Assembly: GCA_015485895.1 (NCBI GenBank)
Contig: WFSR01000062.1
Coordinates: 1 to 40,726, forward strand
From: Candidatus Microgenomates bacterium
GTDB taxonomy: Bacteria > Patescibacteriota > Microgenomatia > UBA12405 > UBA6130
Length of the DNA stretch: 40,726 bases
Reading direction: 5' to 3'
In this document: in pieces, positions 3,202 through 36,209 of the stretch
Layout: the number at the start of each line of letters is the position of its first letter
Position numbering within the stretch: position 1 is the stretch's first letter
Notes under the pieces: model-generated
Database searches by the model: none
Seen by the model: the letters and a program-made list of their open reading frames with translations, nothing else
What the model was told of the DNA's origin: nothing
Translations under genes and position numbers: made by a program

Positions 3202-4186
3202 AACCAGTTTTTTTAGCTACCAACCGCCAAGTCTCCTGGGCATGTTTTTTAGCTTTCCGATTACCTTCTTCAAGAATAGCAGCAACCGCTTTTGGCTTTT
3301 TTTGCCAAGCTTGATAACGCTGTTGGAAATCAACCAAAAAGCGCCCCACGACCTGGCTAACAATCTCTTTAAGATGAACAAATTGCAGAGTGCCCTGAAA
3401 ATATTCCTGGCGCATGTTGGCCAGTTGTTCTTTTTCCTGTTTGTTGGCAAAACTTGCGCCAAGCAAGAAAAGGCTAGCTATCTCATCGCCCATTTTTTTC
3501 GGCGGCCGAGTTAAGGTCTCGGTCACCGCCCGACGGATTTTTTGTTGGGCCTGGACAGGACTGTCGTTAAGGAAAATTGCTCCTTGGGGACGGGACTTGC
3601 TCATCTTTCCCTGACCATCGAGAGCCATAATCTTAACTCCCCGGGTATGGTAAGGGTGAGGAATAGAAAAAAGGTGGCCAAAATGACGATTGAATTGACG
3701 AGCTAACAATTGACTAACCTCGAGATGAGCATCCTGGTCTTTGCCAACTGGGATATGAGTAGCCCGCTGAATAAGAATGTCGGCGGCCATTAGGGTAGGA
3801 TAACGAAGTAAAAAAAGAGATGCCCGACGTGGCTGGCGTACCTTTTCTTTTAAGGTAGGCACTCGTAATGCCTGAGCCACAGAAAAGAAACGGGAAAGAA
3901 AAATTTCTAACAATAAAGTTTTTTCGGCCAAAGCAGATTGGTAATAAATAATTGTCTTTTGGGGATCAACGCCGGCAGCCAAGTAAGTAAGGAGAATTTT
4001 CTCCCGATTAGCGGCTACTTTTTGGGGATCCTCAGTAGTAAGGCCATGGAGATCAGCAACAAAAAGAAAAAAAGGGTCGCCTTTCTCTTGAATAGTTAAA
4101 ACATCACGGATAGCACCAAGATAATTGCCCAGATGAAGAGCCTCAGCAGTAGGGCGCAGACCGGTGAGAAAAATATGCTTGGCCAT
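3182..4186 (-). CDS. trpS: tryptophanyl-tRNA synthetase
   Basis: Class I HIGH-type motif (LHLGNYLGAI) and KMSKS motif (GKMSKS). The start is taken at MAKHIFLTGLRPT because the longer ORF (to 4273) runs through a tRNA gene. The 3' end overlaps rplA by 20 nt. Confidence 0.9.
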   Translation of the reverse strand: MAKHIFLTGLRPTAEALHLGNYLGAIRDVLTIQEKGDPFFLFVADLHGLTTEDPQKVAANREKILLTYLAAGVDPQKTIIYYQSALAEKTLLLEIFLSRFFSVAQALRVPTLKEKVRQPRRASLFLLRYPTLMAADILIQRATHIPVGKDQDAHLEVSQLLARQFNRHFGHLFSIPHPYHTRGVKIMALDGQGKMSKSRPQGAIFLNDSPVQAQQKIRRAVTETLTRPPKKMGDEIASLFLLGASFANKQEKEQLANMRQEYFQGTLQFVHLKEIVSQVVGRFLVDFQQRYQAWQKKPKAVAAILEEGNRKAKKHAQETWRLVAKKTGFTLPLD

Positions 4187-4188
4187 AG

Positions 4189-4262
4189 TGGACCCGGTGG
4201 GATTTGAACCCACGATCTCCTCGATGCCATCGAGGCGCTCTAGCCAACTGAGCCACGGGCCC
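4189..4262 (-). tRNA. tRNA-Ala (anticodon GGC)
   Basis: The reverse complement folds as a 74-nt cloverleaf: GGGCCCG/CGGGTCC acceptor with G3:U70, anticodon loop AUGGCAU, GTTCAAATC T-loop and A73. No CCA is encoded. Confidence 0.9.
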
Positions 4263-4273
4263 TTGGGCATCAA

Positions 4274-4282
4274 AGTATCGCA
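4274..4282 (-). promoter_or_regulatory. extended -10 like box (TGcGATACT) 11 nt upstream of tRNA-Ala
   Basis: The minus strand reads TGCGATACT followed by 11 nt before G1 of the tRNA. Confidence 0.4.
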
Positions 4283-4337
4283 AAAATTTACTTAAAAATC
4301 AATGGGGATTGGGGCTAAGAACTAGGTCAAAAAAGCA

Positions 4338-4605
4338 CCAAATCCCAAATCACAAATTCCAATAACCAACCCCCCTTCTGTAGGGGCAGGCAAATCCTAA
4401 TTACCAAAATCCTAATCCGCCAGCTGGCGGACTAAACAAATTCAAATGACCAAAATTCAAATATTCAAAACATTTCTTTTTTCTTTATCTTTATTTTTGC
4501 ATTTTGTTTTGGTCATTTGGTCATTTAAATTTTGAACATTGTCTAGGATTTGGGTCATTAGGATTTAGGATTTGTGTGGGATTTGGAATTTGTGATTTGG
4601 AATTT
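4338..4605. repeat. AT-rich, strand-skewed imperfect palindrome built from degenerate 7-mers (AAATCCN / NGGATTT)
   Basis: The left arm is nearly G-free on the top strand (aaatcccaaatcacaaattcc..., caaattcaaatgaccaaaattcaaat). The right arm is its imperfect reverse complement (ttggtcatttggtcattt..., ggatttggaatttgtgatttgg). Positions 4413-4473 match 40319-40379 at 60 of 61 nt. Confidence 0.85.
4417..4430. repeat. perfect 14-bp GC palindrome CCGCCAGCTGGCGG
   Basis: An identical copy lies at 40323-40336. Variants CCGCCAGTTGGCGG (9459-9472) and CCGCCAACTGGCGG (40710-40723) also occur. Confidence 0.9.
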
Positions 4606-4724
4606 ACCCCAGCTCCGCCGGATGGTGGACATCGGAGTTTTGAATTTGGGTCATTAGAATTTAGAAGTTTAATAGGATAATGGAACGATGATAAGCTATC
4701 ATAGCTGGATGCTTTCAATTGCGC

Positions 4725-4730
4725 TATAAT
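4725..4730 (+). promoter_or_regulatory. -10 box TATAAT 8 nt upstream of the GT4 GTG start
   Basis: The sequence gcgcTATAATcaatcacgGTG shares the context gctataatcaa with the secE promoter. Confidence 0.45.
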
Positions 4731-4738
4731 CAATCACG

Positions 4739-5848
4739 GTGAAGAGACAAAAAGTTGCTCTCGTCCATGATTACCTCGTCACTTTCGGGGGTGCCGAAAG
4801 AGTTCTTCTCGCTCTTCATGAAATCTGGCCCCACGCCCCTGTTTACCTAGCTATTTATAATCCCCAAACTTTAGGTCGCCACTGGCATAAATTCCAGCAC
4901 TGGGATCTTCGCCCCTCCTGGTTCCAAAAACTTCCCTTCGCTAACCGTCTCATCTCCCCTTTCCGCTTTCTCCTTCCTTATATTTGGGAAAGTTTTGACC
5001 TTTCTTCTTATGACCTAGTTATTTCTTCTTCCGCTTGGGCCATGAGCAAAGCCGTTCTCACCCCCTCTACCAGCAAGCACGTTTGCTACTGTCACACTCC
5101 ACCTCGTTTTCTCTACGGTTACCCCGGTGCCCGTCCCTGGCAACATCACAAATTGGTAAAATTATACGCTCACTTCATTAACCACCATCTTCGCATCTAT
5201 GACTACCTCAGCAGTCAACGGGTAGATTATTTCATCGCCAACTCTCAAGAAGTTGCCCGGCGGATCCAAAAATTCTGGCGACGCCAGGCCCAGGTTATTT
5301 ACCCCCCGATTGATATCCCTGCTGTATTACCTTCTTCCCCTAAGCGTAACTTTTATCTTTACGTTAGTCGACTGGTATCTTACAAACATCCCCTCTTGGC
5401 TGCTAAAGCTTGTCACCATCTCCGTCGTCATCTAACTATAGTTGGCCAGGGTCCACTTGAAAAGAAAGTAGCTCACTTTGCTACACAAAGTCCTTATATC
5501 CATTATTTAGGCCATATTTCTGATCAAAGACTTCATCATCTCTACCAACAAGCCAAGGCTCTCATTTTCCCAGCCGAGAGCGAGGATTTAGGTATGGTTC
5601 CTCTCGAAGCAGCCGCCTGGGGAACACCCACCATTGCTTACTATTCTGGTGGCGCTAAAGAAACTGTTCGACCACAAAATACTGGCCTCTTCTTTTCTAA
5701 ACTTACCCAACCATCTCTCATTCATGCTATTCTAAAGTTTGAAAAAAATAATTGGTCAGCCAAAATTTGCTATCAATGGGCCCGCCGGTTTCGAAAAGAG
5801 AACTTCCAAAAAGCTATCCGTCGCTTTGTTGCCCAGCATCGGGCTTAG
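4739..5848 (+). CDS. glycosyltransferase, GT4-like (GT-B fold)
   Basis: 369 aa with a C-terminal EX7E-type region (PAESEDLGMVPLEAAAWGTPTIAY). GTG start. Confidence 0.78.
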   Translation: MKRQKVALVHDYLVTFGGAERVLLALHEIWPHAPVYLAIYNPQTLGRHWHKFQHWDLRPSWFQKLPFANRLISPFRFLLPYIWESFDLSSYDLVISSSAWAMSKAVLTPSTSKHVCYCHTPPRFLYGYPGARPWQHHKLVKLYAHFINHHLRIYDYLSSQRVDYFIANSQEVARRIQKFWRRQAQVIYPPIDIPAVLPSSPKRNFYLYVSRLVSYKHPLLAAKACHHLRRHLTIVGQGPLEKKVAHFATQSPYIHYLGHISDQRLHHLYQQAKALIFPAESEDLGMVPLEAAAWGTPTIAYYSGGAKETVRPQNTGLFFSKLTQPSLIHAILKFEKNNWSAKICYQWARRFRKENFQKAIRRFVAQHRA

Positions 5849-7694
5849 GAGTATGCTGCTCAGGGGATTTTTTAGCCGTTTTCTCCCCTTGCTGCCTTTT
5901 CAAAAGATCGGCTGGGTTGGTAGTAATTAACTTATATTCATCGGGCGAGGCTACCACTCGAATGGCCACATGATTATTACCAGCAAAGAAAATGCCCTCA
6001 CCCACATTAGCGGCTAATAGATATTGCTTTTCTCCCTCAGATAGGTAAAATGTCTTCCCCACTAGGTCAATAGCCGCTGGGTGCTGTTTCAATAAAATTT
6101 GGATGGATGAATTTTTAATAATTGCCGGCCCTTCTCGAGTGCCCAAGAAATCATCTACATCTTGAGTAATCGTAGTCAAACCTAGGTAATACTTACGGGC
6201 CCGTTTGGCGATACCATGAAGGAAAAGAGCCGAGTCAGGGTATTGCATTAAATACCAGGCCTCATCAACAATAAGAATGCGCTTTTTTAGCTGGCCACGA
6301 ATTTTATTCCAAACAAAATCAAGGATAATATGCATAGCAATCGGCCGTAATGCATCTTCTAGATCACGAATTCCAAAGGTAATAAATTTATTATTAAGAT
6401 CAATAGTTGTTTGGCTATTGAAAATACCAGCAAAAGAACCGCGGATAAATCGTTCTAATCGCGCTGCTAAACCGGCCGCCTGAGGCTCTTCCATTCCAAT
6501 CAACACCTTATAAAGATCTTCTATCAACGGCATTTCTTTCCCTTGCTGAGTTGTCGGATCGGGGGTGATACCCCTGTTATGGTAAGTTGTTACCAAGGCT
6601 CGATCTAAAATTGCTTCCTCCTGAGGTGTCATTTTCCCCATAATAATTTTAAAGAGAGCATGTAGGGAGAGGATCTTGCGCCCTAGTTCATTCGCCCCCT
6701 CTTCATCATCTTCTTTAACTAGAGCTAAGTCAAAAGGGTTAATTTTAGCTGGAGAGTTGGCATTAATATCAACATATTGGCCACCGACTGCTTGGGTCAA
6801 CATTTGGTATTCATTCTCGGGATCAATAATTAGAATATCTGTGCCGAACATCAGCGAACGCAGCGCTTCCAATTTGCACAAAAATGACTTGCCAGCGCCA
6901 GCCTTAGCAAAAATTACCGAGTTGTAATTTTCCATAGAAAAACGGTCAAAGATAACCAAGGAACCATTATGCTGATTGATGCCATACATAATCCCGTGGT
7001 CATCGGATAATTCTGAAGAGACAAAAGGGAAAGTTGTTGCCAAGGAAGTGGTATCCATATTGCGGGTGACATTTAGCTTGTCTTGGCAAAGGGGCAATGT
7101 GGTAACAAAGCCCTCTTCCATTTGGAGAGTAGCCGGCTTAGGAATAATCATCAGCCCGCCCAAAGCCCCCTCCAAATCTTTGCTTGCTCGGCGTAATTCT
7201 TCCACGGAATCGGCCGAAAGGGTAATATAAAGCCCCATCTGAAAGAAGCGTTCCGATCCTCGGGCCAACTCCTGTTGTAAGGTAAGGGCATCCTCAAGTT
7301 TAGCTTGGACAGTAGGGTCCACCACTTTCCCCTGTTGGGTAGCTATCGAAATTTCGGCCTCCATTTCAGCAATTTTCCGTTTAAGATTGTCAAGTACTTC
7401 TCTCTCTTCAGACGGATAAATATACATAGCTACCTGAAGAGGTCTATCAAAATTAATAAGCGGGGCTAACCAACTGGGAGAAACATAACGAGGGTAACTA
7501 ATGACATAAAAAGTGCGGTAAAAGCGATTGTTGATCCGGAGATAATTAAAATCTACCTCAATAGCTGCCGGAGCAATAATATCTTTAACCGTAGTTATTC
7601 CAAGATTAAAGTTACGGGCTAAAGGATTGGCCTGATGACCTGATGACGGGACAGCTTTTTTAGCATGGGGCAAGAATCGCTTCAAATTGATCAT
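5814..7694 (-). CDS. VirB4/TraC-like type IV secretion ATPase
   Basis: 626 aa. Walker A FAKAGAGKS at about residue 263, Walker B ILIVDEAW, then GLTTITQDVDDF. The N-domain starts TTVKDIIAPAAIEV. The 3' end overlaps the GT4 gene by 35 nt. Confidence 0.8.
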   Translation of the reverse strand: MINLKRFLPHAKKAVPSSGHQANPLARNFNLGITTVKDIIAPAAIEVDFNYLRINNRFYRTFYVISYPRYVSPSWLAPLINFDRPLQVAMYIYPSEEREVLDNLKRKIAEMEAEISIATQQGKVVDPTVQAKLEDALTLQQELARGSERFFQMGLYITLSADSVEELRRASKDLEGALGGLMIIPKPATLQMEEGFVTTLPLCQDKLNVTRNMDTTSLATTFPFVSSELSDDHGIMYGINQHNGSLVIFDRFSMENYNSVIFAKAGAGKSFLCKLEALRSLMFGTDILIIDPENEYQMLTQAVGGQYVDINANSPAKINPFDLALVKEDDEEGANELGRKILSLHALFKIIMGKMTPQEEAILDRALVTTYHNRGITPDPTTQQGKEMPLIEDLYKVLIGMEEPQAAGLAARLERFIRGSFAGIFNSQTTIDLNNKFITFGIRDLEDALRPIAMHIILDFVWNKIRGQLKKRILIVDEAWYLMQYPDSALFLHGIAKRARKYYLGLTTITQDVDDFLGTREGPAIIKNSSIQILLKQHPAAIDLVGKTFYLSEGEKQYLLAANVGEGIFFAGNNHVAIRVVASPDEYKLITTNPADLLKRQQGEKTAKKSPEQHTPKPDAGQQSDG

Positions 7695-8395
7695 TTCTTA
7701 CGTAGAGTAACCGGAGAAACAAAATCAGCCAGCCCAAAATTTTTAATTCCCGGCGCTTCTTCATTATATATCTGATAAAAAAGGTTTATCAGCTGACGAG
7801 TGCCCAGTTGGTGAATACGCAAACCAAGGCGGCCGAAGGAATGAATAAGCTGATCTCTCTTCGGCTCAAGGTTCGCTTTTGCCCGTTGAATTAAAGTTTC
7901 TCTAGGTAAAGGAAGGGCTGCTTTCTGAGACTGGTGGGTAAAAGAAAAAATACTCGCAAAACCTGCTTTAGCCGACTGGATACCTAGCTCAAAAACAGAA
8001 AATGGAATAACTACATAAAAAGCTTTTGTTAATACATCATTACGCTGAACAAGATCATCAACAAATTTTTTATAACTAATGATTAATTTTTTAATCTGGG
8101 GAGTTTTTTGGCGCTGCTCTTGCATTTGAAGAAGCTTAAGATAGCTGCCAATATTTTTCAAACTGGAACGAATTAAAATTTGAATCGGGAAATTCAAAGA
8201 ATTAAGGAGAGAACCATAGGCATAAATCATGGCCTCTTGCTCCTTTTCAGAAAGAAGATCAAAATTCACAGCTGGCGTCTCTAGAATATAAACTGCTGAA
8301 CCATCTTTAAGGATAACCATATCCTCAGCAATATCTGCAATTAGAAGATGATCTTGGGTGGTTCCCCGGATAGCTATTTGTTTAATGTCCGCCAT
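7691..8395 (-). CDS. hypothetical protein, co-operonic with the VirB4-like ATPase (possible VirB4 N-domain paralogue)
   Basis: 234 aa. Its stop overlaps the VirB4-like start by 4 nt. By eye it has the same pattern as the N-domain of the downstream ATPase (TTQDHLLIADIAEDMVILKDGS... versus TTVKDIIAPAAIEVDFNYLRINN...). No NTPase motifs. Confidence 0.6.
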   Translation of the reverse strand: MADIKQIAIRGTTQDHLLIADIAEDMVILKDGSAVYILETPAVNFDLLSEKEQEAMIYAYGSLLNSLNFPIQILIRSSLKNIGSYLKLLQMQEQRQKTPQIKKLIISYKKFVDDLVQRNDVLTKAFYVVIPFSVFELGIQSAKAGFASIFSFTHQSQKAALPLPRETLIQRAKANLEPKRDQLIHSFGRLGLRIHQLGTRQLINLFYQIYNEEAPGIKNFGLADFVSPVTLRKK

Positions 8396-8404
8396 AATTG
8401 CAAA

Positions 8405-9250
8405 TCAATTTTTAATTGCCTTAGCCACAATTTTTAACGGGGCGATAATTTGACCGTTAACATTTATTTTCATTATATCAAACTGATAAGGCTCTTTTTC
8501 AGTAATAACCAAATAGTTACCTTTAGCCAGGGGAGTAGCAGTTTGGAACTGACCCAAACCATTGGTGCGCATTGCTCGAACTGGATTCCCTTCGGCATCC
8601 TGAATTTCCACAATTGCTCCCTCTACAGTATCACCTTCGCTGTCGACCACCAAACCACTAACAATATTTGGTTGTGTAGGAGTAGCCGGCAGTTTCTGAT
8701 TAACAAATTGTGCTGGAGTTGTATCCTGACGTTTCTTAGTCTCCCAAAGTTGTGATAATTCCTGCCAATTCGGTTCGTTCGCCTTCACACCAGTTGAGGT
8801 AGTAGTTAGTGCCGCCCTTTGGGCCGGAGGCGGTGGCTTACGCTGGGGAAGAGAAGCTAAAAATTCCCGGGCTGCCTGGGCTTGTCCCCCAACGGCAACT
8901 TTTTGAAAAAAACGAGCCCGATGTGCCTGTTGAGCTAAGAGATCCAGATCAACTGCCGCCGGCATCTTTTTCCAAAGAAATATTGTAGGTGAATAAACAC
9001 GCCGCAGAAAGATAAGAAACCAAACCTCAAGAGGGCGACCGTTGACAGGAGCAAAAGCTAAAGCTGCAGCGATAACCAGGGGTAAAAGCGTTAAGAAAAA
9101 GCGTAAAGAAACAGGGAGATGAGAAGTATAAAAAATACCGGCGATAATAACGCCAGCTGCCATTTTAGCGAATTGTTTGAGAGTCATATTACCCACAAGA
9201 CGAAACTCATACGAAGAAATCTCTTGTGGTATTTGATGCTGTCCTAACAT
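8405..9250 (-). CDS. PrgI/VirB3-like membrane protein with a C-terminal beta-sandwich (CarboxypepD_reg-like) domain
   Basis: N-terminus (IPQEISSYEFRLVGNMTLKQFAKMAAGVIIAG) plus two TM helices matches the PrgI-family layout. A Pro/Gln/Thr-rich linker follows, then GLVVDSEGDTVEGAIVEIQDAEGNPVRAMRTNGLGQFQ..LAKGNYLV. Confidence 0.6.
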   Translation of the reverse strand: MLGQHQIPQEISSYEFRLVGNMTLKQFAKMAAGVIIAGIFYTSHLPVSLRFFLTLLPLVIAAALAFAPVNGRPLEVWFLIFLRRVYSPTIFLWKKMPAAVDLDLLAQQAHRARFFQKVAVGGQAQAAREFLASLPQRKPPPPAQRAALTTTSTGVKANEPNWQELSQLWETKKRQDTTPAQFVNQKLPATPTQPNIVSGLVVDSEGDTVEGAIVEIQDAEGNPVRAMRTNGLGQFQTATPLAKGNYLVITEKEPYQFDIMKINVNGQIIAPLKIVAKAIKN

Positions 9251-9257
9251 TTATTTC

Positions 9258-9266
9258 AGTTTAGCA
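9258..9266 (-). promoter_or_regulatory. extended -10 like box (TGcTAAACT) 7 nt upstream of the PrgI-like ATG
   Basis: The minus strand reads TGCTAAACT, then gaaataa, then ATG (9250). Confidence 0.45.
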
Positions 9267-9325
9267 TAAAAGAGAGAGAACAACTAGGGAATTGGAGCTA
9301 GGAATTAGAAACTTAGTAATGCGTT

Positions 9326-9363
9326 ATCCTGACTCCTTGACGTCACGTCGGGAAGTTCAGGAT
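9326..9363. repeat. copy of the nested hairpin module ATCCTGA..GACGTnACGTC..TTCAGGAT
   Basis: atcctgactccttgacgtcacgtcgggaagttcaggat. Related copies lie at 20588-20643, 22072-22113, 30638-30680 and 40690 to the window end. Confidence 0.8.
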
Positions 9364-9456
9364 CTCTGACAAACAGGCTGCCTAAAGACGAAAGCTCTGA
9401 TAAGAAAAAAGAAAAATTAGTATAATGAAGTAAATAGAACTAGAAACTAGGTTCGC

Positions 9457-9576
9457 CTCCGCCAGTTGGCGGAGTCGGAGGAGCTGATGCTGGCGACTCT
9501 AGTAACAATCTGCCATTCGCTGAAGACCCAACTCATGCACGCAAGGGTGAGGTATAAATTAGTCTTAGTTAGATAA
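9457..9576 (+). repeat. GC hairpin plus a conserved ~80-nt element and a 45-nt tail (candidate structured RNA/DNA element)
   Basis: 9472-9552 aligns with 16701-16783 at roughly 80% identity. 9532-9576 matches the reverse complement of 16617-16661 at 41 of 45 nt. Confidence 0.8.
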
Positions 9577-9615
9577 GCCTTTTTTAAGCTGATTTTTATT
9601 GGGGAAGACTTAGCG

Positions 9616-9644
9616 TTGACTTGTTGATCCTCCTGGAGTAAACT
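9616..9644 (+). promoter_or_regulatory. sigma70-like promoter TTGACT-17 nt-TAAACT, 9 nt upstream of the tig GTG
   Basis: ttgact (9616-9621), a 17-nt spacer, taaact (9639-9644), and GTG at 9654. Confidence 0.5.
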
Positions 9645-9653
9645 AAGACTACC

Positions 9654-16539: not shown

Positions 16540-16616
16540 AAATTATTATAAACTAATAGACGTCGAAAGACTAGAATTAGTCTTACCTAATCAAAAAGCG
16601 GATTAAAAGAGAATCT

Positions 16617-16661
16617 TTATCTAACTAAGACTAATTTATATTTCGCCCATGCGTGCATGAG
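16617..16661 (-). repeat. inverted 45-nt copy of the tail of the 9457-9576 element
   Basis: The reverse complement ctcatgcacgcatgggcgaaatataaattagtcttagttagataa matches 9532-9576 at 41 of 45 nt. Confidence 0.85.
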
Positions 16662-16700
16662 CAGAATGACAAATACATGGCGCATCCACAATAGAAAGAA

Positions 16701-16783
16701 GAGTCAGATGAGCTGACGCTGGTGACTCTAGCAACAATCTGCCATTCACCGAAGACTCAGTTCTTGCCTGCAAGGGCGGATGG
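16701..16783 (+). repeat. direct copy of the conserved ~80-nt element
   Basis: gagtcagatgagctgacgctggtgactctagcaacaatctgccattcaccgaagac... aligns with 9472-9552. The stem gagtca/tgactc replaces gagtcg/cgactc, one compensatory pair. Confidence 0.8.
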
Positions 16784-16825
16784 CAAAGAAACATATACCT
16801 GAGACCCTAAATAAGGCTTGTTATT

Positions 16826-16864
16826 AATTTCAGTCCGATTTTTCAATTAAGTGGGACTGAAATT
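16826..16864. other. strong 11-bp hairpin upstream of thyX
   Basis: aatttcagtcc - 17-nt loop - ggactgaaatt. No T-run follows. Function unknown. Confidence 0.6.
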
Positions 16865-16979
16865 GCGTTATAACAGCTACGAATTTGCATAACAAACTTT
16901 TCTAGGTCACTAAAAATAACTGAAAGATCACTCTGGCGAGCTCCTTGCAACCAGGGCAGCAATAAGTTATTTTAAGATA

Positions 16980-20503: not shown

Positions 20504-20650
20504 CCCCGTCATCCCGCCCTTTCTTATGAAAGAGCGGGGTCTTCAGTGAGTGTCTAATTGACATTGATGGTTCACTACCCACTGAAGATCCTGAAACCCC
20601 AGGCCCCGACGTGACGTCGGGACGGAGCGGGTAAATTCAGGATGACGGGG
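20504..20650. repeat. 147-bp element with perfect 11-bp terminal inverted repeats (CCCCGTCATCC / GGATGACGGGG) enclosing three consecutive hairpins
   Basis: hp1 at 20513-20538 (cccgc-c-ctttc ttat gaaag-a-gcggg). hp2 at 20541-20587 (cttcagtg...cactgaag). hp3 at 20588-20643 (atcctgaa...ccccgacgtgacgtcggg...ttcaggat). Confidence 0.85.
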
Positions 20651-21833: not shown

Positions 21834-21941
21834 CCAAAATAAGCACCCTCGCCTAATTCGGGGCTAGCTCTCCACCACATTGGCAACACCCAAAATTATT
21901 ATGGGGCTAAGTCCACCAGCTGATGGATTGGAACTAGAGAT

Positions 21942-22040
21942 TAAGTGTTAAGTCTCAAATGAACGTTTACACTTTTAGCCTAGCGAAACATAAAAACTTT
22001 AAAGGTTAAGAAACACTAAATAAGAGAAAAACTTAGGATT
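21942..22040 (+). repeat. second copy of the ~100-nt module (see 20396-20497)
   Basis: Direct alignment by eye, same orientation. Confidence 0.8.
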
Positions 22041-22065
22041 CAAGCCCGTTCTGTTTGTCCTTTCT

Positions 22066-22160
22066 CTTGTCATTCTAAAAACCTCCGACGTTACGTCGGA
22101 GGGGGTTCAGAATCTTCAGCTGGGTGTCCGATTTACATTATTAGCAGTCAACTCTCTGGG
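22066..22160. repeat. reverse-oriented, partly degenerate copy of the three-hairpin element
   Basis: cttgtcattctaaaaacctccgacgttacgtcggagggggttcagaatcttcagctggg... matches the reverse complement of 20588-20650. hp3 is preserved (attctaaa / ttcagaat around cctccgacg tta cgtcggagg). Confidence 0.7.
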
Positions 22161-22221
22161 GATCCTTAAGCCGATTTTTGATTGGGTAAGACTCGGGATT
22201 TTATTTTGCCGCTCATTTGTG

Positions 22222-22227
22222 TATAAT
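22222..22227 (+). promoter_or_regulatory. -10 box TATAAT 9 nt upstream of tRNA-Tyr
   Basis: gtgTATAATtgagactag, then C1 of the tRNA at 22237. Confidence 0.5.
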
Positions 22228-22236
22228 TGAGACTAG

Positions 22237-26040: not shown

Positions 26041-26060
26041 CATACCAAAAAATACCCAAA

Positions 26061-26205
26061 TTCCAAATCTCAAACTCCAAACAAAACTCAAAGTCCAAAA
26101 TCCTAAATTCTAAACAATGACCAAAATCCAAATGACCAAATACTTAAACAGGATGGTTTTTAGGCTTCTGTGTTTTGGTCATTTGGTATTTGGTATTTAA
26201 TATTG
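26061..26205. repeat. AT-rich strand-skewed quasi-palindrome (same family as 4338-4605)
   Basis: ccaaatctcaaactccaaacaaaactcaaagtccaaaatcctaaattctaaacaatgaccaaaatccaaatgacc..., then ttttggtcatttggtatttggtattt. Confidence 0.8.
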
Positions 26206-26223
26206 CCTGCCTGCGCAGGCAGG
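26206..26223. repeat. perfect 18-bp GC palindrome CCTGCCTGCGCAGGCAGG
   Basis: Self-complementary. It shares the GCCTGCC/GGCAGGC arms with the 40263-40291 hairpin. Confidence 0.9.
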
Positions 26224-26240
26224 GAACTTTGTGCTTCTTT

Positions 26241-26336
26241 AACTTAGTTCCTCCAACCTAGCTCCATTTTTAACTTTTCACTTTCTTCGCCCTTAGTCCT
26301 TAGCCCTTAGCCCCTTTCAACCTAGTTCCTAGTTCC
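26241..26336 (+). repeat. 7-bp tandem repeat arrays (CTTAGYC x3, CTAGTTC x2) and related C/T-rich filler
   Basis: cttagtc cttagcc cttagcc (26292-26312). cctagttcctagttcc (26321-26336). Confidence 0.85.
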
Positions 26337-26411
26337 ATTTATTAACTTTCTAGCTCTTAAGTCATAATCAGCCATAAGAAGATAAAATTTGCATTCTTTA
26401 GAGAAAATAAG

Positions 26412-26618: not shown

Positions 26619-26955
26619 AATCATCAAAACTCTCTTTGCGGGCTCTTTTGACCATCTAGCCGGAAGAAAAACTAACCCTGATGACGAAGAAGCAAAATCT
26701 ATCAGTAAACAACAAAAGTTCATCGATAGACACATTGTCCAAGCAGCTTCTCGTTGGCCCTTGGAAAGAATTAATAGAATTGATTTAGCTATCCTTCGAT
26801 TAGCTATTTGGGAGCTCTGTTTCCAGAAGAAGGAACCACCAAAGGTCATTATTGACGAAGCGGTAGAGTTGGCTAAAGAATTTGGGGGTGAGAATTCACC
26901 CAGTTTTGTTAACGGTGTTTTGGGAACTATCTATGAACAATGCCAAAATAAATAA
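26575..26955 (+). CDS. nusB: transcription antitermination factor NusB
   Basis: RHQRRRKIIKTLF...IDLAILRLAIWEL...PPKVIIDEAVELAKEFGGENSPSFVNGVLG. Overlaps rpmF by 44 nt in another frame. Confidence 0.85.
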   Translation: MNKKLSDPRHQRRRKIIKTLFAGSFDHLAGRKTNPDDEEAKSISKQQKFIDRHIVQAASRWPLERINRIDLAILRLAIWELCFQKKEPPKVIIDEAVELAKEFGGENSPSFVNGVLGTIYEQCQNK

Positions 26956-27670
26956 TTCCAATTTGGAAAAACAATTAGGTTTTAGTTTTTATAACCCAAG
27001 CATTCTTCGGACTGCTTTCACCCATCGTTCCTGGCTTAATGAGCATCATCAAATCAAAGCCGTTTCCAACGAACGATTAGAATTCCTCGGTGATGCTGTC
27101 CTGGAACTTTGGAGTAGCGACCGCCTTTTCAACCTCTTTCCGAATTACCCAGAAGGGCAGCTTACCAATATCCGCTCAGCTTTGGTGCGTGGTCAAAGCC
27201 TGGCGGCGGCGGCAAAAAAGCTTAAGCTTGGCACTTATTTACGCCTTAGCCGTGGAGAAGAAAAAACTGGCGGGAGAGAAAATACTTCCCTTCTGGAAAA
27301 TACTTTTGAGGCTTTGCTAGGGGCTATCTATTCCGATCACGGCATTGTTTTTGCTTTCCGTTTCCTTGATCATCATCTCCTTCCAAAATTAAAAGAGCTT
27401 GGCCGTCAAGGCAATATCAAAGATGCCAAAACCCTCTTCCAGGAAATCGCTCAAGAAAAGATGAAAATTACCCCCACTTATCAAGTTCTGAATAGCCAAG
27501 GACCGGAGCATCAAAAACTTTTTATCAGCGGAGTTTTTTTAAACGAGAGGTTAATTGCCAAGGGCCAAGGTCACTCTAAGCGCCAAGCAGAAGAAACAGC
27601 CGCTAAAAAAGCATTGACTATCTTTAGGAAACAAAGTAAAATCAAAATAAAGAAAAATGCTAAAAATTAA
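26933..27670 (+). CDS. rnc: ribonuclease III
   Basis: Signature NERLEFLGDAVLE plus a C-terminal dsRBD (GPEHQKLF...GHSKRQAEETAAKKAL). The start is taken at MNNAKINN. Confidence 0.92.
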   Translation: MNNAKINNSNLEKQLGFSFYNPSILRTAFTHRSWLNEHHQIKAVSNERLEFLGDAVLELWSSDRLFNLFPNYPEGQLTNIRSALVRGQSLAAAAKKLKLGTYLRLSRGEEKTGGRENTSLLENTFEALLGAIYSDHGIVFAFRFLDHHLLPKLKELGRQGNIKDAKTLFQEIAQEKMKITPTYQVLNSQGPEHQKLFISGVFLNERLIAKGQGHSKRQAEETAAKKALTIFRKQSKIKIKKNAKN

Positions 27671-28127: not shown

Positions 28128-28910
28128 TCAAAAAGGATTTTGCCTTCTTACTTCTTGTTTATGTAATGTTTGTTCTAAAGCTTGCACTTTTTCAAAAAGC
28201 GTTTGAGAATGATCAGCAAATGTTCCCAATGATTGGACTGTTTTCATTTCCAAAGGCGAAAGCACAAAAGCCCTAGTCGTCAACCTACCATTTTTGGGGA
28301 GATGCAGCTCGCCCGCAAAATACATCAACAATCTGAGTTGAACATTTACCAAAGAAGGCACAGTATCACCTTGCCGGTGAACCGCCAGACGAGAAATACT
28401 TATCAGGGGCAACCCTTCCTCCAGAGAACGCAAAAATGCTCCTAATTCCTCTTCAGGACCAATCGTATCGAGTTCCACCATTACCGTCTCAGTACCAGAT
28501 CTTTTATGCTGTTTCCGTTGCCCCGCTGCCGACGCCACTTTAACTGCCCCTAAATCGAAGCTTAACTTCTTTACCATAAAATGGTGGCGCTGGGCCGGTT
28601 CCTCCAACGCAAACAATATTAACTGCAAATCACTTTTTTCCGGAAAAGCCTTTTCTGTCAATTGCGCTCGCTGTTTCACTTTTTCCCAATCCCAATTCGT
28701 CAAGATGACTTTTTCTTGCTTTTCCCGTAATAATTCCTGACGCAATTGCCACCAAAGACGCCCCCGCCGGTAAACATGCAACCACCCTTGCCACAAGAAT
28801 CCTCCGCCAATAAAAACCGTTAGCCAAAAAAGGGCAAGGGAGAAAATCGCCTGCCGGGCAACTTTATTTTGCCAAAGCTGTTGGTCTAGAATCAACCATC
28901 CCAGACGCAT
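28128..28910 (-). CDS. PilO-like type IV pilus assembly membrane protein (tentative)
   Basis: A single N-terminal TM helix, a coiled-coil stretch and a C-terminal alpha/beta region. It is the last gene of the pilM-pilN-X operon. Confidence 0.5.
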   Translation of the reverse strand: MRLGWLILDQQLWQNKVARQAIFSLALFWLTVFIGGGFLWQGWLHVYRRGRLWWQLRQELLREKQEKVILTNWDWEKVKQRAQLTEKAFPEKSDLQLILFALEEPAQRHHFMVKKLSFDLGAVKVASAAGQRKQHKRSGTETVMVELDTIGPEEELGAFLRSLEEGLPLISISRLAVHRQGDTVPSLVNVQLRLLMYFAGELHLPKNGRLTTRAFVLSPLEMKTVQSLGTFADHSQTLFEKVQALEQTLHKQEVRRQNPF

Positions 28911-28912
28911 TT

Positions 28913-29455
28913 CTATAAATGAATTAATAAACTAAAACGCATGTTGCCGGGAGCCATTTGGATCGCTTGCACTGTTACCACCGAAAATTGGTCGTTAGGA
29001 AGCCAACGACGATAATGACGAGTGCGGCGGTCAAAATCTGCCCACGCCGACAGAGAACGCCAGTGTCCTTGGATAGCCAATTTATCGCCACGGTATATTA
29101 CTTCATCTAGAACTGCCCCTGGGCCAAGGAATTCTTTCACCTGCTGCAATCGCCTGCTTATTATTTGCCTCTTTCTCAGAACGCTGGCCGCTAATTTTAT
29201 CTTTCCTCGGGCCCTCAATTGTGCTCGCAAATAAGGCAAAAAGGCTCTCAAATCTTCCTTTATAGTCGTCCGTTCGGCAGCAAGCAGTTTTACCCGACGC
29301 TGTAACTGCCAACGAGCCAAAAGAATAAGCAGACCGTTAACGATCAAAAAAATAGCTAGCCATTTAAGATCTCGTTGCCAGCGCCGGATCATTCGCCAAT
29401 ATTGCCAATTAATTTTTGTCCTTGTCGGCAATAAGTTTATTGTTTCTACTTCCAT
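28913..29455 (-). CDS. pilN: PilN-like type IV pilus assembly protein
   Basis: N-terminal INLLP motif (ETINLLPTR) followed by one TM helix. Overlaps pilM by 10 nt. Confidence 0.7.
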   Translation of the reverse strand: MEVETINLLPTRTKINWQYWRMIRRWQRDLKWLAIFLIVNGLLILLARWQLQRRVKLLAAERTTIKEDLRAFLPYLRAQLRARGKIKLAASVLRKRQIISRRLQQVKEFLGPGAVLDEVIYRGDKLAIQGHWRSLSAWADFDRRTRHYRRWLPNDQFSVVTVQAIQMAPGNMRFSLLIHL

Positions 29456-30456
29456 AAACGGAGGGCTGAGCCAATAACACCGCTAAACTCTAATTTCTTC
29501 TCTTCCCAATGCTGCTGACTTGCCAAACTAGGATTTAGAGTAAGACCGGCCAGAGGATCTCCCCATTGCACTTCAACACCTAACTCGCTCACTAATTCAT
29601 CCGCCAGCCCGGGCACTAATGATCCTTTGCCAGAGAGTGTTAAGACTTTTACTTTTTGTTTCCAAACCCCTTCAAAGGCCAAAATGCTCTTGCGGGTTTC
29701 CACTACCAATTGTTGAACCACCGGCAACAAAGCTTGGCGAATTTTATTTTTCCACTGGCCAGCTTTCAGCCCATAAGTAGTTTTATACGCCTCTGCTTTT
29801 TCGAGCGACATACCTAAAACTACACTCACCGCACGGGTAAGGGTATCACCCCCTAATGAGGAAAAATGGCTTAGATAAGGCGCCCTTTGATAGCTTATAA
29901 CCACCGTTGTCTGCATAGCGCCAATATCAACAATAGCAGTGGCCGTCGTTGGTTCGGTGGCAAAGACACGAGTTAAGGCAATACTGTAATTTTCTATTGC
30001 CAAGGGGACCAAACGCAAATTAGTAAGTAGATCAATCAAAGCATCAAGGTAACTCTTTTGAGTAGCTACCACCAGAATCGTCTTACCCTTATCTTTCCGA
30101 TCTTGCAAAACTTGATAATCCATCTGGGCCTTAGTTACCGGATAGGGGATAAACGTTTCTGCTTCATAATGCAAAGCCGAAGCTATTTCCGCATCCTTCA
30201 TCGGAGGAAGATTAACCACCCGGCTAATTACCACCTCCTCGGGGATATTGACCACCACCCGGGGATAATTCTTTCCAATTGTGGTCAGAGCTTTTGCTGC
30301 TGCCGCGGGTAAATTACTCAATGTCAGGGGTGAGGTCGCCGCTGAACCTAAGCCTCGATATTCTTGTAGAATTGCCAACTCTAGTTTGTCATTTTTCTTT
30401 TCTACAGCCGCTAGCTGTACCGCTTCACCGCTTAGGCGCAGAGCAAAATAGTTCAT
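29446..30456 (-). CDS. pilM: PilM, actin-like type IV pilus assembly ATPase-fold protein
   Basis: 336 aa with an actin/HSP70-like layout (VDIGAMQTTVVIS, GGDTLT, LSGKGSLVPGLADEL). Sits upstream of pilN. Confidence 0.8.
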   Translation of the reverse strand: MNYFALRLSGEAVQLAAVEKKNDKLELAILQEYRGLGSAATSPLTLSNLPAAAAKALTTIGKNYPRVVVNIPEEVVISRVVNLPPMKDAEIASALHYEAETFIPYPVTKAQMDYQVLQDRKDKGKTILVVATQKSYLDALIDLLTNLRLVPLAIENYSIALTRVFATEPTTATAIVDIGAMQTTVVISYQRAPYLSHFSSLGGDTLTRAVSVVLGMSLEKAEAYKTTYGLKAGQWKNKIRQALLPVVQQLVVETRKSILAFEGVWKQKVKVLTLSGKGSLVPGLADELVSELGVEVQWGDPLAGLTLNPSLASQQHWEEKKLEFSGVIGSALRLWK

Positions 30457-30465
30457 TCTCCTTTC

Positions 30466-30471
30466 AGTATA
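30466..30471 (-). promoter_or_regulatory. -10 like box TATACT 9 nt upstream of the pilM ATG
   Basis: The minus strand reads ctttTATACTgaaaggagaATG. Confidence 0.4.
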
Positions 30472-30637
30472 AAGAGAGGGGCAAGAAAAATCAATTTAGG
30501 CTTAACTTTTCACTACATTGGCAATTAAAAACCCAAAGCCTGGCCCCTAAAGCTAGGAAATAGCTGAAAGGGGCTAAAAAACTAAGGGCGAAAAGATGAC
30601 CTGCCATCCATATCTTTGTCAAGTTGAGTTTGGCTCA

Positions 30638-30680
30638 CCCTGCCCCGATCTTACGTCGGAGTGAAAATCAGGATGACGCG
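30638..30680. repeat. degenerate copy of the GACGTnACGTC / TCAGGATGACG module
   Basis: ccctgccccgatcttacgtcggagtgaaaatcaggatgacgcg. Confidence 0.6.
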
Positions 30681-30687
30681 TTATTGG

Positions 30688-30823
30688 CCTAATTCCTAGT
30701 TCCATTTACTTCTCACATTAATTCTTCTTTCCTAATAAAAGCTTTAGGCTTTGGGCTTTCAGCTTTTAGCAGCCCTTTAGGACTTTTGCTTTTTCCTAGT
30801 TCCTAGTTCCTAGTTCCTAGCTC
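30688..30823 (+). repeat. ~135-bp heptamer-rich module shared with 40469-40607
   Basis: cctagttccatttact..., aaagctttaggctttgggctttcagcttttagcagccctttagg, then CTAGTTC x3 plus CTAGCTC (30796-30823). Confidence 0.85.
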
Positions 30824-30901
30824 CATTTCCACTTCAACTTCTCTAAGTATCAGATACTAAAGATTTTGAATTTGGAAAATTGGCAAATTCGGACTTATTA
30901 T

Positions 30902-31411
30902 CTAAATTCGTTCCTGAAACAACTTAGTTACCTGGAATATTGCCTCTTTCTTTCCGGGAACAATTTGCAAAGTATTTGCGTTATTGTTAGCAATAGAAAA
31001 GGTAAAAGCAATGTCCACTTGAGGATAAGCCTCTGAAGTAACTTTGCAAGTGGCTGCCAATCTATCGCAGTGCACCCCCTCAGGGCTGAGATAGGCTGAA
31101 TTGGAAGCTAAATGACCATTCCGACAACTAAAGGTAGTGATACCACCATCGTAGCCTAAAAAGGCAATGCTAGAAGCGTCACTAACCGGGCAGGCCAAGG
31201 GGCGATGGGCAAAACGGTTAAGGTAATCTTCCATTGCCAGAGCAGCAGCGCTACCAGCTTGGCGTAATTCTTTACTGGCTAAAGCTTTATCCTGCCCCCG
31301 CAAATTAAAATAAAAAATTGTTGCCCCAATCGAAACAATAACTGCCAGCAGCCCGGTCACCAAAAGACTCTCAAAAAGACTAAAACCTTGCTGTTGCAAT
31401 TTACCGCCCAT
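30902..31411 (-). CDS. prepilin-type minor pilin/pseudopilin
   Basis: Class III signal: MGGKLQQQG|FSLFESLLVTGLLAVIV. Confidence 0.65.
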   Translation of the reverse strand: MGGKLQQQGFSLFESLLVTGLLAVIVSIGATIFYFNLRGQDKALASKELRQAGSAAALAMEDYLNRFAHRPLACPVSDASSIAFLGYDGGITTFSCRNGHLASNSAYLSPEGVHCDRLAATCKVTSEAYPQVDIAFTFSIANNNANTLQIVPGKKEAIFQVTKLFQERI

Positions 31412-31820
31412 TGGTAATTACCGTTTTCAAAACAATAATCGTCCTCGTTCCCCGTAAAACTTTTATAGCTACCGCCGCCCTTTTGTCAGTGTCTCCTAAC
31501 GAACAATCACTAAAACAATCCTGGCAAGAAAAAATATTGCTCCCGTCACAATCAGTTGCCAAACAGCTACCTGTTTGGCAATAAATATTGATCCTCTGCC
31601 ACCAGTCATTGTCAAAACGGTTAGCTTGCAACTCCGACAATTGCCGCTTGGCGACTTGAAGGGCGGCTGTGCGTTGCTGAGCGAACCGAGTTGCTGCCAA
31701 CATAAAGGTCGTCCCCGCCGCTAACCCCGAAAGGAGCAGAGCACTAATCGAAAGAATAAACACCAACTCAACCAAAGTCTGCCCTTTTTTATTATTGTCG
31801 CTATTTTTCGTCATTGACAA
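31401..31820 (-). CDS. prepilin-type minor pilin, Cys-rich
   Basis: NNKKG|QTLVELVFILSISALLL. The C-terminal part has 7 Cys (YCQTGSCLATDCDGSNIFSCQDCFSDC). Confidence 0.6.
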   Translation of the reverse strand: MSMTKNSDNNKKGQTLVELVFILSISALLLSGLAAGTTFMLAATRFAQQRTAALQVAKRQLSELQANRFDNDWWQRINIYCQTGSCLATDCDGSNIFSCQDCFSDCSLGDTDKRAAVAIKVLRGTRTIIVLKTVITNGR

Positions 31821-32302
31821 GAATTAAGGCTTATCGTGCCATTACGGTACATACTAATTTGCCGGCAACGGCTGATTGTCCTTATTTGGAAAAAGGCAGG
31901 GTTGCTGCTCACTCCACTCAAAGCACCGCTCAATGGCAGCCAATTGAAATGATTATTATCATCACCATCAACTAAGTTAATTGCCACCTTTTTCTTTTGC
32001 CAATCACCATTGTAAGTTTGCCATGGTTGTTGCCAGTTGTCGCACACTTGGCGGGCTCTAAGGCTGTAATCAGCTGGCGACCACCAAACTTCGTACCGTA
32101 GCAGAGTTTGGCAATTTTGGCGGTCTTTCACTCCATTACGAGCTTGGCTTCGGAGAAGGGCTAATTGTGAATAGAGACTATTAGCAGCTAAATTAACCGC
32201 CCGTTGTTGATAAAATAGACGATAACCGGCAAAACTTATTCCCGCCACCAAGCTCATAATTGCTGCCGAGACCAAAAGTTCAATTAACGTCAAGCCTTTC
32301 AT
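31811..32302 (-). CDS. prepilin-type minor pilin
   Basis: MKG|LTLIELLVSAAIMSLVAG. An internal start is chosen because the longer ORF overlaps the upstream pilin gene. Confidence 0.65.
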   Translation of the reverse strand: MKGLTLIELLVSAAIMSLVAGISFAGYRLFYQQRAVNLAANSLYSQLALLRSQARNGVKDRQNCQTLLRYEVWWSPADYSLRARQVCDNWQQPWQTYNGDWQKKKVAINLVDGDDNNHFNWLPLSGALSGVSSNPAFFQIRTISRCRQISMYRNGTISLNSCQ

Positions 32303-32303
32303 T

Positions 32304-32735
32304 TTACGGCGGTGAGAGGTGGTAATTGCAAATTGCCCCTCCGCAACTAGGGTGACCGGGACAGCCGTTACGGTCATTGCTAGATTCCAGTGCAGCACAA
32401 AGAGTATAGTCAGTTCCATTACTGGAATGATAATAATAATGCCATCCTTTAGGATCTTGGGGAAATTCATGCATATAAGTAGTCCCGTTGCACACCCACG
32501 CCCCAGATGAAGGCGGTAAGCACGCCTGGCAACTACCACCATCGTAATAAGGATAACAGCCAATATCATTGCGGATCATTTCCAAAACTGAACGGATTTG
32601 ACTGAGATCAGCTTCTCGCTTGTCATCTCTAGCTTTTTTCCCGGCTGCCTGATATGACACCATCGCCGCCGATGAAAGGAGAATTATGATGGTAGTTACT
32701 ACCAAGAGTTCGATAAAAGTAAACCCTTTCTTCAC
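32304..32735 (-). CDS. GspG/PilA-like prepilin paralogue
   Basis: MKKG|FTFIELLVVTTIIILL, then KKARDDKREADLSQIRSVLEMI. Cys-rich C-terminus. Confidence 0.75.
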   Translation of the reverse strand: MKKGFTFIELLVVTTIIILLSSAAMVSYQAAGKKARDDKREADLSQIRSVLEMIRNDIGCYPYYDGGSCQACLPPSSGAWVCNGTTYMHEFPQDPKGWHYYYHSSNGTDYTLCAALESSNDRNGCPGHPSCGGAICNYHLSPP

Positions 32736-33136: not shown

Positions 33137-33137
33137 T

Positions 33138-34084: not shown

Positions 34085-34085
34085 T

Positions 34086-35533: not shown

Positions 35534-35536
35534 CTT

Positions 35537-36193: not shown

Positions 36194-36209
36194 TTCTTCA
36201 CCCCCTTTC

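Follow-up and report, generated by a model that had tools for sequence, protein, structure and literature searches.

Three intergenic spacers of contig WFSR01000062.1 from a Candidatus Microgenomates bacterium, at positions 4338-4605, 26061-26205 and 40292-40465, carry large stem-loop elements that, on the reading we favour and hold to be rather probable, are short, gene-less, intergenic members of a cassette of the intervening sequence (IVS) type and likely selfish DNA. The entire contig of 40,726 nt, hereafter the window, comes from a hydrothermal-vent metagenome; the window flanks match a Shapirobacteria metagenome-assembled genome (MAG) at 73-79%, which identifies the host as a Shapirobacteria-like bacterium of the Candidate Phyla Radiation (CPR). 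The elements belong to a family with modular anatomy and sharp ends that leaves no target-site duplication. What is new here is the finding of IVS-type stem-loops outside rRNA genes, as dispersed repeats comparable to MITEs, the miniature transposable elements with inverted repeats.

Anatomy of the three window copies

An earlier note on this DNA, made from the sequence alone, had described large imperfect palindromes in the three spacers, built from degenerate 7-mers and perhaps cruciform-forming. The palindromes and their 7-mer build were borne out, and the stretches could form a hairpin or cruciform. Each spacer holds an imperfect palindrome with an A/C-rich 5' half and a T/G-rich 3' half; arm complementarity is 75-96%, DNA and RNA folds measured against dinucleotide shuffles give z-scores from -2.9 to -8.5, and Tandem Repeats Finder (TRF) detects arrays of period 7-8 throughout the arms, which are about 66 nt long with 28-40% GC. 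In copy 1 (4338-4605) the arms 4340-4362 and 4583-4605 are complementary at 96%, and the spacer folds as DNA at -55.5 kcal/mol (z -8.47, with 0 of 200 shuffles as good) and as RNA at z -7.3. Copy 3 (40292-40465) reaches z -6.07 as DNA and -7.0 as RNA. Copy 2 (26061-26205) is weaker and lopsided, having a long left arm and a short right arm (RNA z -2.9), with 75% complementarity between 26116-26143 and 26156-26183. The strand skew that had been noticed, a left arm almost without G and a right arm almost without C, agrees with the base counts in the window: G occupies 14 of 133, 3 of 80 and 8 of 89 positions in the left halves of copies 1, 2 and 3, and C occupies 10 of 135, 5 of 65 and 6 of 85 positions in the right halves, most of the left-arm G of copies 1 and 3 being held by small nested GC hairpins. 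The poverty in G of the left arm belongs to the variant of this lineage alone; in most other lineages the heptamers end in G.

Copy 1 has a composite A/C-rich left arm (4338-4473) made of outer extra heptamers, two nested GC hairpins, and a junction with the inner-arm core AATGACCAAAATTCAAATATTCAAAAC, as delimited by a left-arm hidden Markov model (HMM) match at 4431-4470, by pairing and by the fold. The nested hairpins are a GC-rich palindrome of GTAG type (4371-4392) and a CCGCCAGCTGGCGG hairpin (4417-4430), the latter present as an identical insert in copy 3. A T-rich, non-conserved loop (4474-4505) leads to the T/G-rich right arm (4506-4605; right-arm HMM matches at 4506-4555 and 4546-4604, repeat families D3 and D5), just outside of which lies a solo right-arm-like fragment (4635-4674) with a 70% match to 4539-4578 (D3). 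Copy 2 combines a long A/C-rich left arm with core AATGACCAAAATCCAAATGACCAAA (26045-26141; left-arm HMM match at 26087-26140, TRF arrays, and an orthologous copy in the relative L079), a short degenerate T/G-rich right arm (26156-26200; repeats I13 and D5, fold z -2.9) and, abutting the latter, the small GC palindrome CCTGCCTGCGCAGGCAGG (26206-26223). The left arm of copy 3 is A/C-rich, contains a nested CCGCCAGCTGGCGG hairpin at 40323-40336 and spans 40292-40376 (left-arm HMM match at 40301-40376, E 6.7e-10; about 91% identical to the orthologous arm in the relative L068); the loop (40377-40395), which in L068 holds a nested insert of about 215 nt, separates it from the T/G-rich right arm (40396-40465; right-arm HMM match at 40396-40461, E 4.8e-9). 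Direct comparison confirmed that the segments 4413-4473 and 40319-40379 differ at 1 of 61 nt.

A modular element family spanning many phyla

The 25-nt core pattern AATGACCAAAATYCAAATNNNCAAA of the left arm, searched in one genome per GTDB species, gave at least 106 exact matches in GTDB genomes, where about one is expected by chance according to our own composition estimate. Among the core matches listed, 103 arms with a full upstream flank were distributed over at least 69 species-level MAGs and at least 12 phyla. The core-bearing labels include Desulfobacterota (several orders), Syntrophorhabdus, Aminicenantes, Omnitrophota, Nitrospinota, Nitrospirae, Schekmanbacteria, Planctomycetota (Pirellulales, Phycisphaerae, Planctomycetales), UBP18, FCPU426, Bacteroidales and Gammaproteobacteria, together with many CPR groups such as Saccharibacteria, Shapirobacteria, Falkowbacteria, Nealsonbacteria and Paceibacterota. 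This spread is not a binning artefact, because long-read contigs of 200-545 kb carry several of the matches, and rRNA genes carry three (one 16S, two 23S). No match to the core was found in IMG/VR viral contigs, INPHARED phages or PLSDB plasmids, and a phage or plasmid vector was rejected on that ground.

When the matches are aligned on the core, the upstream sequence, which was not part of the search pattern, carries about 0.1 bit up to -40 and climbs abruptly to about 1 bit at -39, which makes the left arm a discrete unit of 66 nt. It comprises four heptamers AAnnnCN, a junction CGAAACAA(A/T)T, the aligned stretch here reading AAACAA(A/T)(A/T)TCN, and then the inner arm with the core ending in CAAAAC. 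An imperfectly complementary right arm ending in ...CGGATTT follows within 330 nt in 87 of 109 matches (the 106 loci and the three window copies), and about one fifth of the matches are without a partner arm in that range, some of these at contig ends. Most loops measure 0-60 nt, and other small palindromic repeats, nested inside, extend some of them to 100-250 nt. The median hairpin z-score is -4.6 (44 elements).

A second sample of at least 120 stretches was drawn from JGI metagenomes with an outer-arm pattern. Among the matches listed, the whole element measures about 130-170 nt (median 147, interquartile range 133-165), and the exact core occurs in only 1 of 115 copies, so that the core marks one subfamily of a much larger superfamily. 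Arms always have four outer units taken from a small repertoire, in which AAATCCn, AAATTCn, AAGCACn, AATATCn and AAATACn account for 61% of 412 units. The seventh base of the heptamer is lineage-specific, being G in Desulfobacterota, Aminicenantes and most Planctomycetota, T in some Planctomycetota, Nitrospinota, Nitrospirae and Paceibacterota, and C in most Saccharibacteria, other CPR MAGs and Bacteroidales, and it changes jointly on both arms. Unit types follow a different order in copies that are otherwise near-identical, and even the two arms of a single copy differ in this. RNAalifold finds support for no more than 17 outer pairs, and between the arms the three variable nucleotides of the heptamers do not match. 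Above the gathering threshold Rfam gave two tRNAs only in the window, and in the elements of four loci it gave only sub-threshold matches resembling miRNA precursors; a structured RNA family was rejected on the basis of the Rfam and RNAalifold results.

Copies in rRNA genes and long forms with a PF05635 gene

Three exact-core copies are located inside rRNA genes of Saccharibacteria-type MAGs (L035, L082 and L085). The L035 copy occupies the apical loop of the hairpin just before GGUAGGGGAGC in the 23S rRNA, a hairpin that we take, from the E. coli sequence, to be helix 45. In L082 the copy sits at a helix tip near model position 229 of the 23S rRNA and is accompanied by two more A-rich-to-T-rich heptamer hairpins, at helix 9 and near position 286. 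The three L082 inserts (205-335, 390-562 and 617-748) all occupy helix tips within the first 300 model positions. The core belongs to the middle insert alone, and the heptamers of the other two are TGAAAAA and CTGAAAC. The L085 copy occupies the tip of 16S helix 6 (V1), and metatranscriptome contigs of many other organisms align on both sides of it with a V1 loop of their own, of 20-40 nt, in its place. Helix 45 of the 23S rRNA is a canonical site of IVSs, stem-loops bounded by inverted repeats that replace a helix tip, are cut out by RNase III without religation and in some cases carry an S23p/IVP open reading frame (ORF); they are sporadic and thought to move horizontally, and their origin and function have been called unclear (PMC4990558). 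Numerous short inserts without an ORF are present at IVS sites of CPR rRNA genes, alongside some that carry 23S_rRNA_IVP (PMC11270868).

The element also exists in long forms. Five of the 120 listed outer-arm loci (L197, L198, L175, L135 and L227), about 480-690 nt in length, hold in their loop, between complete left and right arms, a gene of 112-120 aa that matches Pfam PF05635, '23S rRNA-intervening sequence protein' (E 7.8e-13), NCBIfam TIGR02436, 'four helix bundle protein' (E 5e-16), and PDB 2RLD. Three further homologues were chosen regardless of their flanks (L235, L236 and L239), and all three proved to be bracketed by arms, their flanks being matched at E 1e-8 to 1e-14 by arm HMMs derived from the subfamily of the window. 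There are thus eight long forms in all with arms around a PF05635/TIGR02436 gene. The start codon of the L239 gene aligns with AAATG of the short-form core, which fits short forms arising by gene loss. The PF05635 family is very large, with at least 8000 candidates passing E 1e-5, many of which are on very short contigs. The protein is described as a toroidal homopentamer with a kinship to Avd, which is associated with nucleic acids (PMC4990558, PMC10053308); Avd, which PF05635 resembles, serves diversity-generating retroelements as their accessory protein (PMC10053308). Text searches of the literature with the element sequence strings returned no relevant match, and the cross-phylum spread, the heptamer code and the tie to PF05635 cassettes were found nowhere in the literature searched, outside of which some key papers lie.

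Boundaries, copying and retention

Flanks are unrelated between copies, and the stems do not extend into them. Among 45 well-bounded copies, direct repeats of 2-5 nt are at or below chance; no target consensus was found beyond A/T richness, and no insertion into a pre-existing hairpin was seen, the flanks not being complementary. In about 1.4 Mb of flanking DNA no inverted arm pair encloses a transposase; the genes so enclosed encode a TylF-like methyltransferase, MreB or PF05635. An autonomous insertion sequence (IS) with the same ends was rejected, the enclosed genes being ordinary or PF05635.

Composite variants are copied as units and retained at orthologous sites. Copies 1 and 3 share the position of their CCGCCAGCTGGCGG hairpin with the orthologous pilB copy in the relative, and the GTAG-type hairpin of copy 1 recurs, identically placed within the element, in a copy of the relative L079 that is not orthologous. 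The earlier note had proposed recent copying or strong constraint for the near-identical segments of copies 1 and 3, and the presence of one composite at two places in the window, and at the orthologous pilB site in a relative with flanking DNA only 73-79% identical, upholds that proposal. In an Aminicenantes MAG (CS4-C025), the inner arms of five copies from different contigs (L028, L050, L061, L065 and L101) are almost identical, and one 36-nt loop recurs in three of these copies; the heptamer types of the four-unit outer arms are shuffled in order from copy to copy and from one arm of a copy to the other. Element positions differ between the window and its relative.

Same-species contigs from other samples (L001, L002 and L113) end inside the palindromes. 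These ends fall at window position 4496, in the loop of copy 1, where a sister contig from another sample stops, at about 40402 in the right arm of copy 3 (L001) and at about 40371 in its left arm (L002). Many GTDB core matches also lie at contig ends. The elements therefore break short-read assemblies, and copy numbers in MAGs are underestimates. Element-bearing spacers also coincide with synteny breakpoints (4263-4738, 9251-9653, 16540-16979 and 21834-22236, compared with L110 and L079). In L110 (TrpS identity 67%) the trpS segment has the opposite orientation, and the T11 MAG is without the 5.6-kb three-gene block between a penicillin-binding protein (PBP) gene and tRNA-Tyr and has an element copy at that junction.

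Orientation and relation to promoters

The earlier note had placed the palindromes between divergent promoters. This holds for spacer 1, with trpS and tRNA-Ala(GGC) on the minus strand and a GT4 glycosyltransferase gene on the plus strand, and for spacer 2, with recG and an amidase-like ORF on the minus strand and rpmF-nusB-rnc on the plus strand. Spacer 3 lies upstream of pilB; its right-hand gene is beyond the contig end (40726), and in the nearest relative the right neighbour of this spacer is on the same strand as pilB. Beyond the window, spacers were classified over the core-matched loci and the window together (about 0.8 Mb, genes called by a simple ORF heuristic). The 82 element-bearing spacers divide into 64 co-directional, 11 divergent and 7 convergent ones, against 368, 70 and 68 background spacers of the same loci, which for divergent spacers gives a Fisher odds ratio of 0.96 (p = 1). 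The note had itself named a census without association to divergent or promoter-proximal positions as what would tell against it, and this is the outcome obtained. Between co-directional genes the core arm is sense in 32 and antisense in 22 cases (p = 0.22). Insertion has occurred in either orientation and into any kind of spacer, and the loops have received nested insertions of their own. The elements lie close to genes, at a median of 30 nt from the upstream stop codon and 44 nt or less from the next possible start.

The window elements show no enrichment of sigma-70-like sites, and distances to promoters vary between copies. The 60-120 bp said to separate the arrays from the -10 box is only approximate, a promoter-like TTGCAT-17-TAGAAT of rpmF, kept in the relative, being about 215 nt beyond the right arm of copy 2. 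A promoter element was rejected on account of the absent sigma-70-like enrichment and the absent divergent-spacer bias. The A/C-rich arm does face the minus-strand gene as described, but this is automatic from palindromic symmetry, either strand reading the A/C arm first; in the same way, the sight of one T/G-rich array by both flanking genes, which had been taken for a regulatory sign, is a geometric property of any palindrome. A promoter-specific regulator array does not define the element, because the census is at background, orientation is unbiased and copies lie inside 16S and 23S genes. The heptamers may possibly be bound by a protein. As to transcription termination, the large hairpin is AU-rich with many mismatches and is without the GC stem and U-run of a terminator; only the nested GC hairpins score as terminator-like, and an intrinsic bidirectional terminator was rejected for the large element.

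Comparison with known element classes

The likeness to IVSs lies in an extended stem-loop that is built by terminal inverted repeats and is richer in AT than the host, in the existence of two size classes, short at about 100-200 nt without an ORF and long at about 430-760 nt with a PF05635 gene in the loop, in the sporadic distribution across lineages, and in the presence of family members in 23S helix 45 and 16S helix 6 (PMC4990558, PMC11270868). The window copies form the stem-loop; the PF05635 gene is carried by the eight long forms, all outside the window. The difference from IVSs lies in location, since the window copies occupy protein-gene and tRNA spacers instead of the rRNA helix tips typical of IVSs, such as those of 23S helices 9, 25 and 45 and 16S helix 6, and, like most family members, are found in ordinary intergenic spacers, several per 40 kb. 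The classical IVSs of Salmonella, Leptospira, Coxiella, Campylobacter and Alphaproteobacteria were likened by description. To our knowledge, heptamer-coded arms and a lineage-specific seventh base have not been described for IVSs.

MITE-like repeats, such as Correia/NEMIS of Neisseria, ERIC/IRU of enterobacteria, RPE of Rickettsia and Nezha of cyanobacteria, resemble the window elements in size (100-200 nt), in their inverted-repeat arms, in being present many times per genome between genes and in either orientation, and in their association with assembly breaks and rearrangement points; their co-transcribed hairpins can be cut by RNase III (PMC10969869). The window family has the inverted repeats, small size and high copy number of MITEs, but neither target-site duplications nor a related transposase-bearing IS was found; the only cargo seen is a non-transposase four-helix-bundle gene, and the family spans at least 12 phyla rather than one genus or family. 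Repetitive extragenic palindromic (REP) sequences and REPINs, mobilised by RAYT proteins, are likewise hairpin-forming and extragenic, leave no target duplication and are sometimes mosaics with other repeats. REPs are GC-rich palindromes of 20-40 nt, whereas the arms of this family are about 66 nt and AT-rich, and no RAYT-like family was found among the neighbour genes of the copies; the REP-like part of the window copies is the nested small GC palindromes and not the large element. Heterocystous cyanobacteria reportedly have short tandemly repeated repetitive (STRR) sequences and small dispersed repeats (SDRs), said to be described by Mazel in 1990 and Elhai in 2008, with heptamer intergenic arrays, a TTGGTCA-like unit and nested small GC palindromes. 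The window elements differ in their host, a CPR bacterium and not a cyanobacterium, and in having two inverted arms of fixed length around a loop, as opposed to open tandem arrays. A cyanobacterial origin (STRR, SDR or Nezha) was rejected because of the match of the flanks to the Shapirobacteria MAG.

Proposed mechanism and alternative explanations

On the reading that we favour, the element would be selfish DNA spread by some trans-acting activity and tolerated because it lands in spacers and helix tips. A transcript of either strand is predicted to fold into a long A-U-rich hairpin that RNase III could cleave, as shown for rRNA IVSs in other bacteria (PMC4990558), and such cleavage may add to tolerance. 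By analogy with the IVS literature (PMC4990558), the candidate cutter of transcribed hairpins is the host RNase III encoded by rnc (26882-27670, plus strand; Pfam Ribonucleas_3_3, Ribonuclease_3 and dsrm), which lies outside the element. Transcript cleavage, punctuation, recombination and assembly breaks would then be by-products for the neighbours and not a form of promoter control.

Several observations weigh against this reading. No clean empty site was found, the trpS spacer having rearranged synteny in the relatives. No mobilising enzyme was seen: the roughly 1.4 Mb of flanking DNA contains neither a transposase nor an enriched neighbour gene, the genes near the copies belonging to common families only (AAA+ activators, kinases, ABC ATPases, FabI, QueE), and neither the window nor any of the 106 listed core-matched loci has a PF05635 gene. 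As for RNA, the window was present in DNA runs only, and the metatranscriptome contigs aligned with L085 are from other organisms. The elements also show more than would be expected of a purely neutral parasite: orthologous copies are about 85-95% identical where flanking coding DNA is 73-79% identical, copies persist at orthologous sites of genome pairs that are 73-82% identical, and the invariant heptamer positions are the same across phyla.

Because of the orthologous retention above the level of the coding flanks and the heptamer positions shared across phyla, a host-level function is kept as the main rival. The hairpins would then be punctuation beneficial to the host, selected because they separate adjacent transcription units: RNase III would process transcripts there, or the hairpins would act in both directions as attenuators or terminators, or would stabilise 3' ends, along the lines suggested for REP, ERIC and Correia elements. 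The tight filling of short spacers agrees with this, as do the persistence at orthologous sites and the periodic conserved positions; a palindrome gives the same hairpin either way, which makes the missing orientation bias compatible, and RNase III does cut Correia-bearing mRNAs (PMC10969869). We nevertheless consider it unlikely, given the copies in rRNA helix tips, the background rates of divergent and convergent spacers, the fifth of the matches that have no partner arm (some at contig ends), the loops that accept nested inserts of 100-250 nt, the differing copy positions in window and relative, and an AU-rich, mismatched stem of a kind ill matched to a terminator. Very unlikely, in our view, is the proposal of the earlier note that the arms are binding arrays for a regulator or nucleoid protein, or cruciform DNA, acting on divergent promoters. 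Invariant AA...C. positions and a fixed four units per arm do resemble a repeated protein-recognition unit, two of the three window copies lie between divergent genes, and the PF05635 protein of the long forms, a relative of Avd (PMC4990558, PMC10053308), could be the binder. Against these stand the census, in which most copies lie between co-directional genes and divergent spacers are not enriched, the copies in rRNA genes, the lack of promoter-site enrichment and of a constant promoter distance, and the purely geometric origin of the shared orientation. Extremely unlikely is local growth of heptamer microsatellites by slippage, in the manner of cyanobacterial STRRs, with palindromes arising by chance or local inversion and no moving unit. 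Arms made of 7-8-mers, a heptamer order that varies between copies of one genome, and other heptamer arrays (CCTAGTT and similar) adjoining the elements would suit it; the sharp boundary, the unit number fixed at four, the non-repetitive 25-nt core common to at least 69 MAGs, the loops and nested inserts shared at unrelated sites, and the same unit inside rRNA helices speak against it.

An extension of the IVS-type reading would make all these elements one pan-bacterial mobile class with PF05635 as its sole dedicated gene, in which the PF05635 protein would recognise the heptamer arrays and drive stem-loop copying, possibly through RNase III-excised RNA and a host reverse transcriptase, and the rRNA IVSs would be copies that landed in rRNA genes. 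We regard this as quite unlikely. If true, it would explain the sharp ends, the missing target duplication, the insertion either way round and the preference for hairpin tips, and would answer the 30-year-old question of where IVSs come from.

Other repeats and genes of the window

Small GC-rich palindromes inside or beside the elements fall into the families CCGCCAGCTGGCGG, CCCGACGTNACGTCGGG, CCTGCCTGCGCAGGCAGG and the GTAG-type CCCCCTTCTGTAGGGG. They were located at 4371-4386, 4417-4430, 9336-9352, 9459-9472, 20605-20621, 22084-22100, 26206-26223, 30644-30660, 40255-40292, 40323-40336 and 40710-40723; at 40255-40292 GC palindromes are nested in one another, and they resemble mini-repeats of the REP or SDR type. 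A second repeat module, with CCTAGTT/CTTAGCC heptamers followed by CCATTTAYT (26228-26357, 30688-30831 and 40469-40614), adjoins the palindromes and also occurs in the spacer upstream of pilM; an 82-nt segment is repeated at 89% identity between 30743-30824 and 40519-40600, and the spacers are mosaics of several repeat families. The divergent spacers 9472-9576 and 16617-16776, upstream of the genes for trigger factor and a class A PBP, have two repeats in common, one direct (76 nt, 83%) and one inverted (45 nt, 91%), and gave no Rfam match. In the T11 Shapirobacteria MAG, element loops contain a palindromic repeat of about 215 nt (GTCATTCTGAGCG...AGCGAAGCCCC ... GGGGCTTCG...CTCAGGATGAC), found in L068 (2653-2869), L077, L060 and L109 (3350-3508); in L109 the repeat adjoins a right arm that has no left partner.

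Among the genes around the three spacers, the small gene rpmF (L32; 26427-26618), 5' of nusB-rnc, is the true plus-strand neighbour of spacer 2. On the minus strand tRNA-Ala(GGC) (4186-4262) abuts the trpS start codon, and public trpS gene calls run through this tRNA, giving 362 aa instead of 334 aa. The region 5814-9250 encodes a trio resembling conjugation or type IV secretion proteins (P-loop TraG/VirB4-like, TraC-like and PrgI-like), and a long cluster for a type IV pilus (pilB, pilT, pilC, pilins, prepilin peptidase, pilM and others) occupies 28128-40217; CPR genomes typically have both.

Implications

The window spacers should be annotated as repeat elements and not as regulatory regions. 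If the proposed reading is true, it would account for many of the contig breaks, and of the ORFs called wrongly, in MAGs of CPR, Planctomycetota, Desulfobacterota and others. The fixed unit number, the shuffled heptamer types and the lineage-specific seventh base may point to a novel mechanism of copying or recognition. Likewise, rRNA IVSs, the very large orphan family of PF05635/TIGR02436 Avd-like proteins and the MITE-like hairpins of uncultured bacteria would form one family, present in at least 12 phyla and marked by a recognisable heptamer code; where IVSs come from and how they spread would become testable, and the four-helix-bundle proteins would gain a candidate nucleic-acid target.

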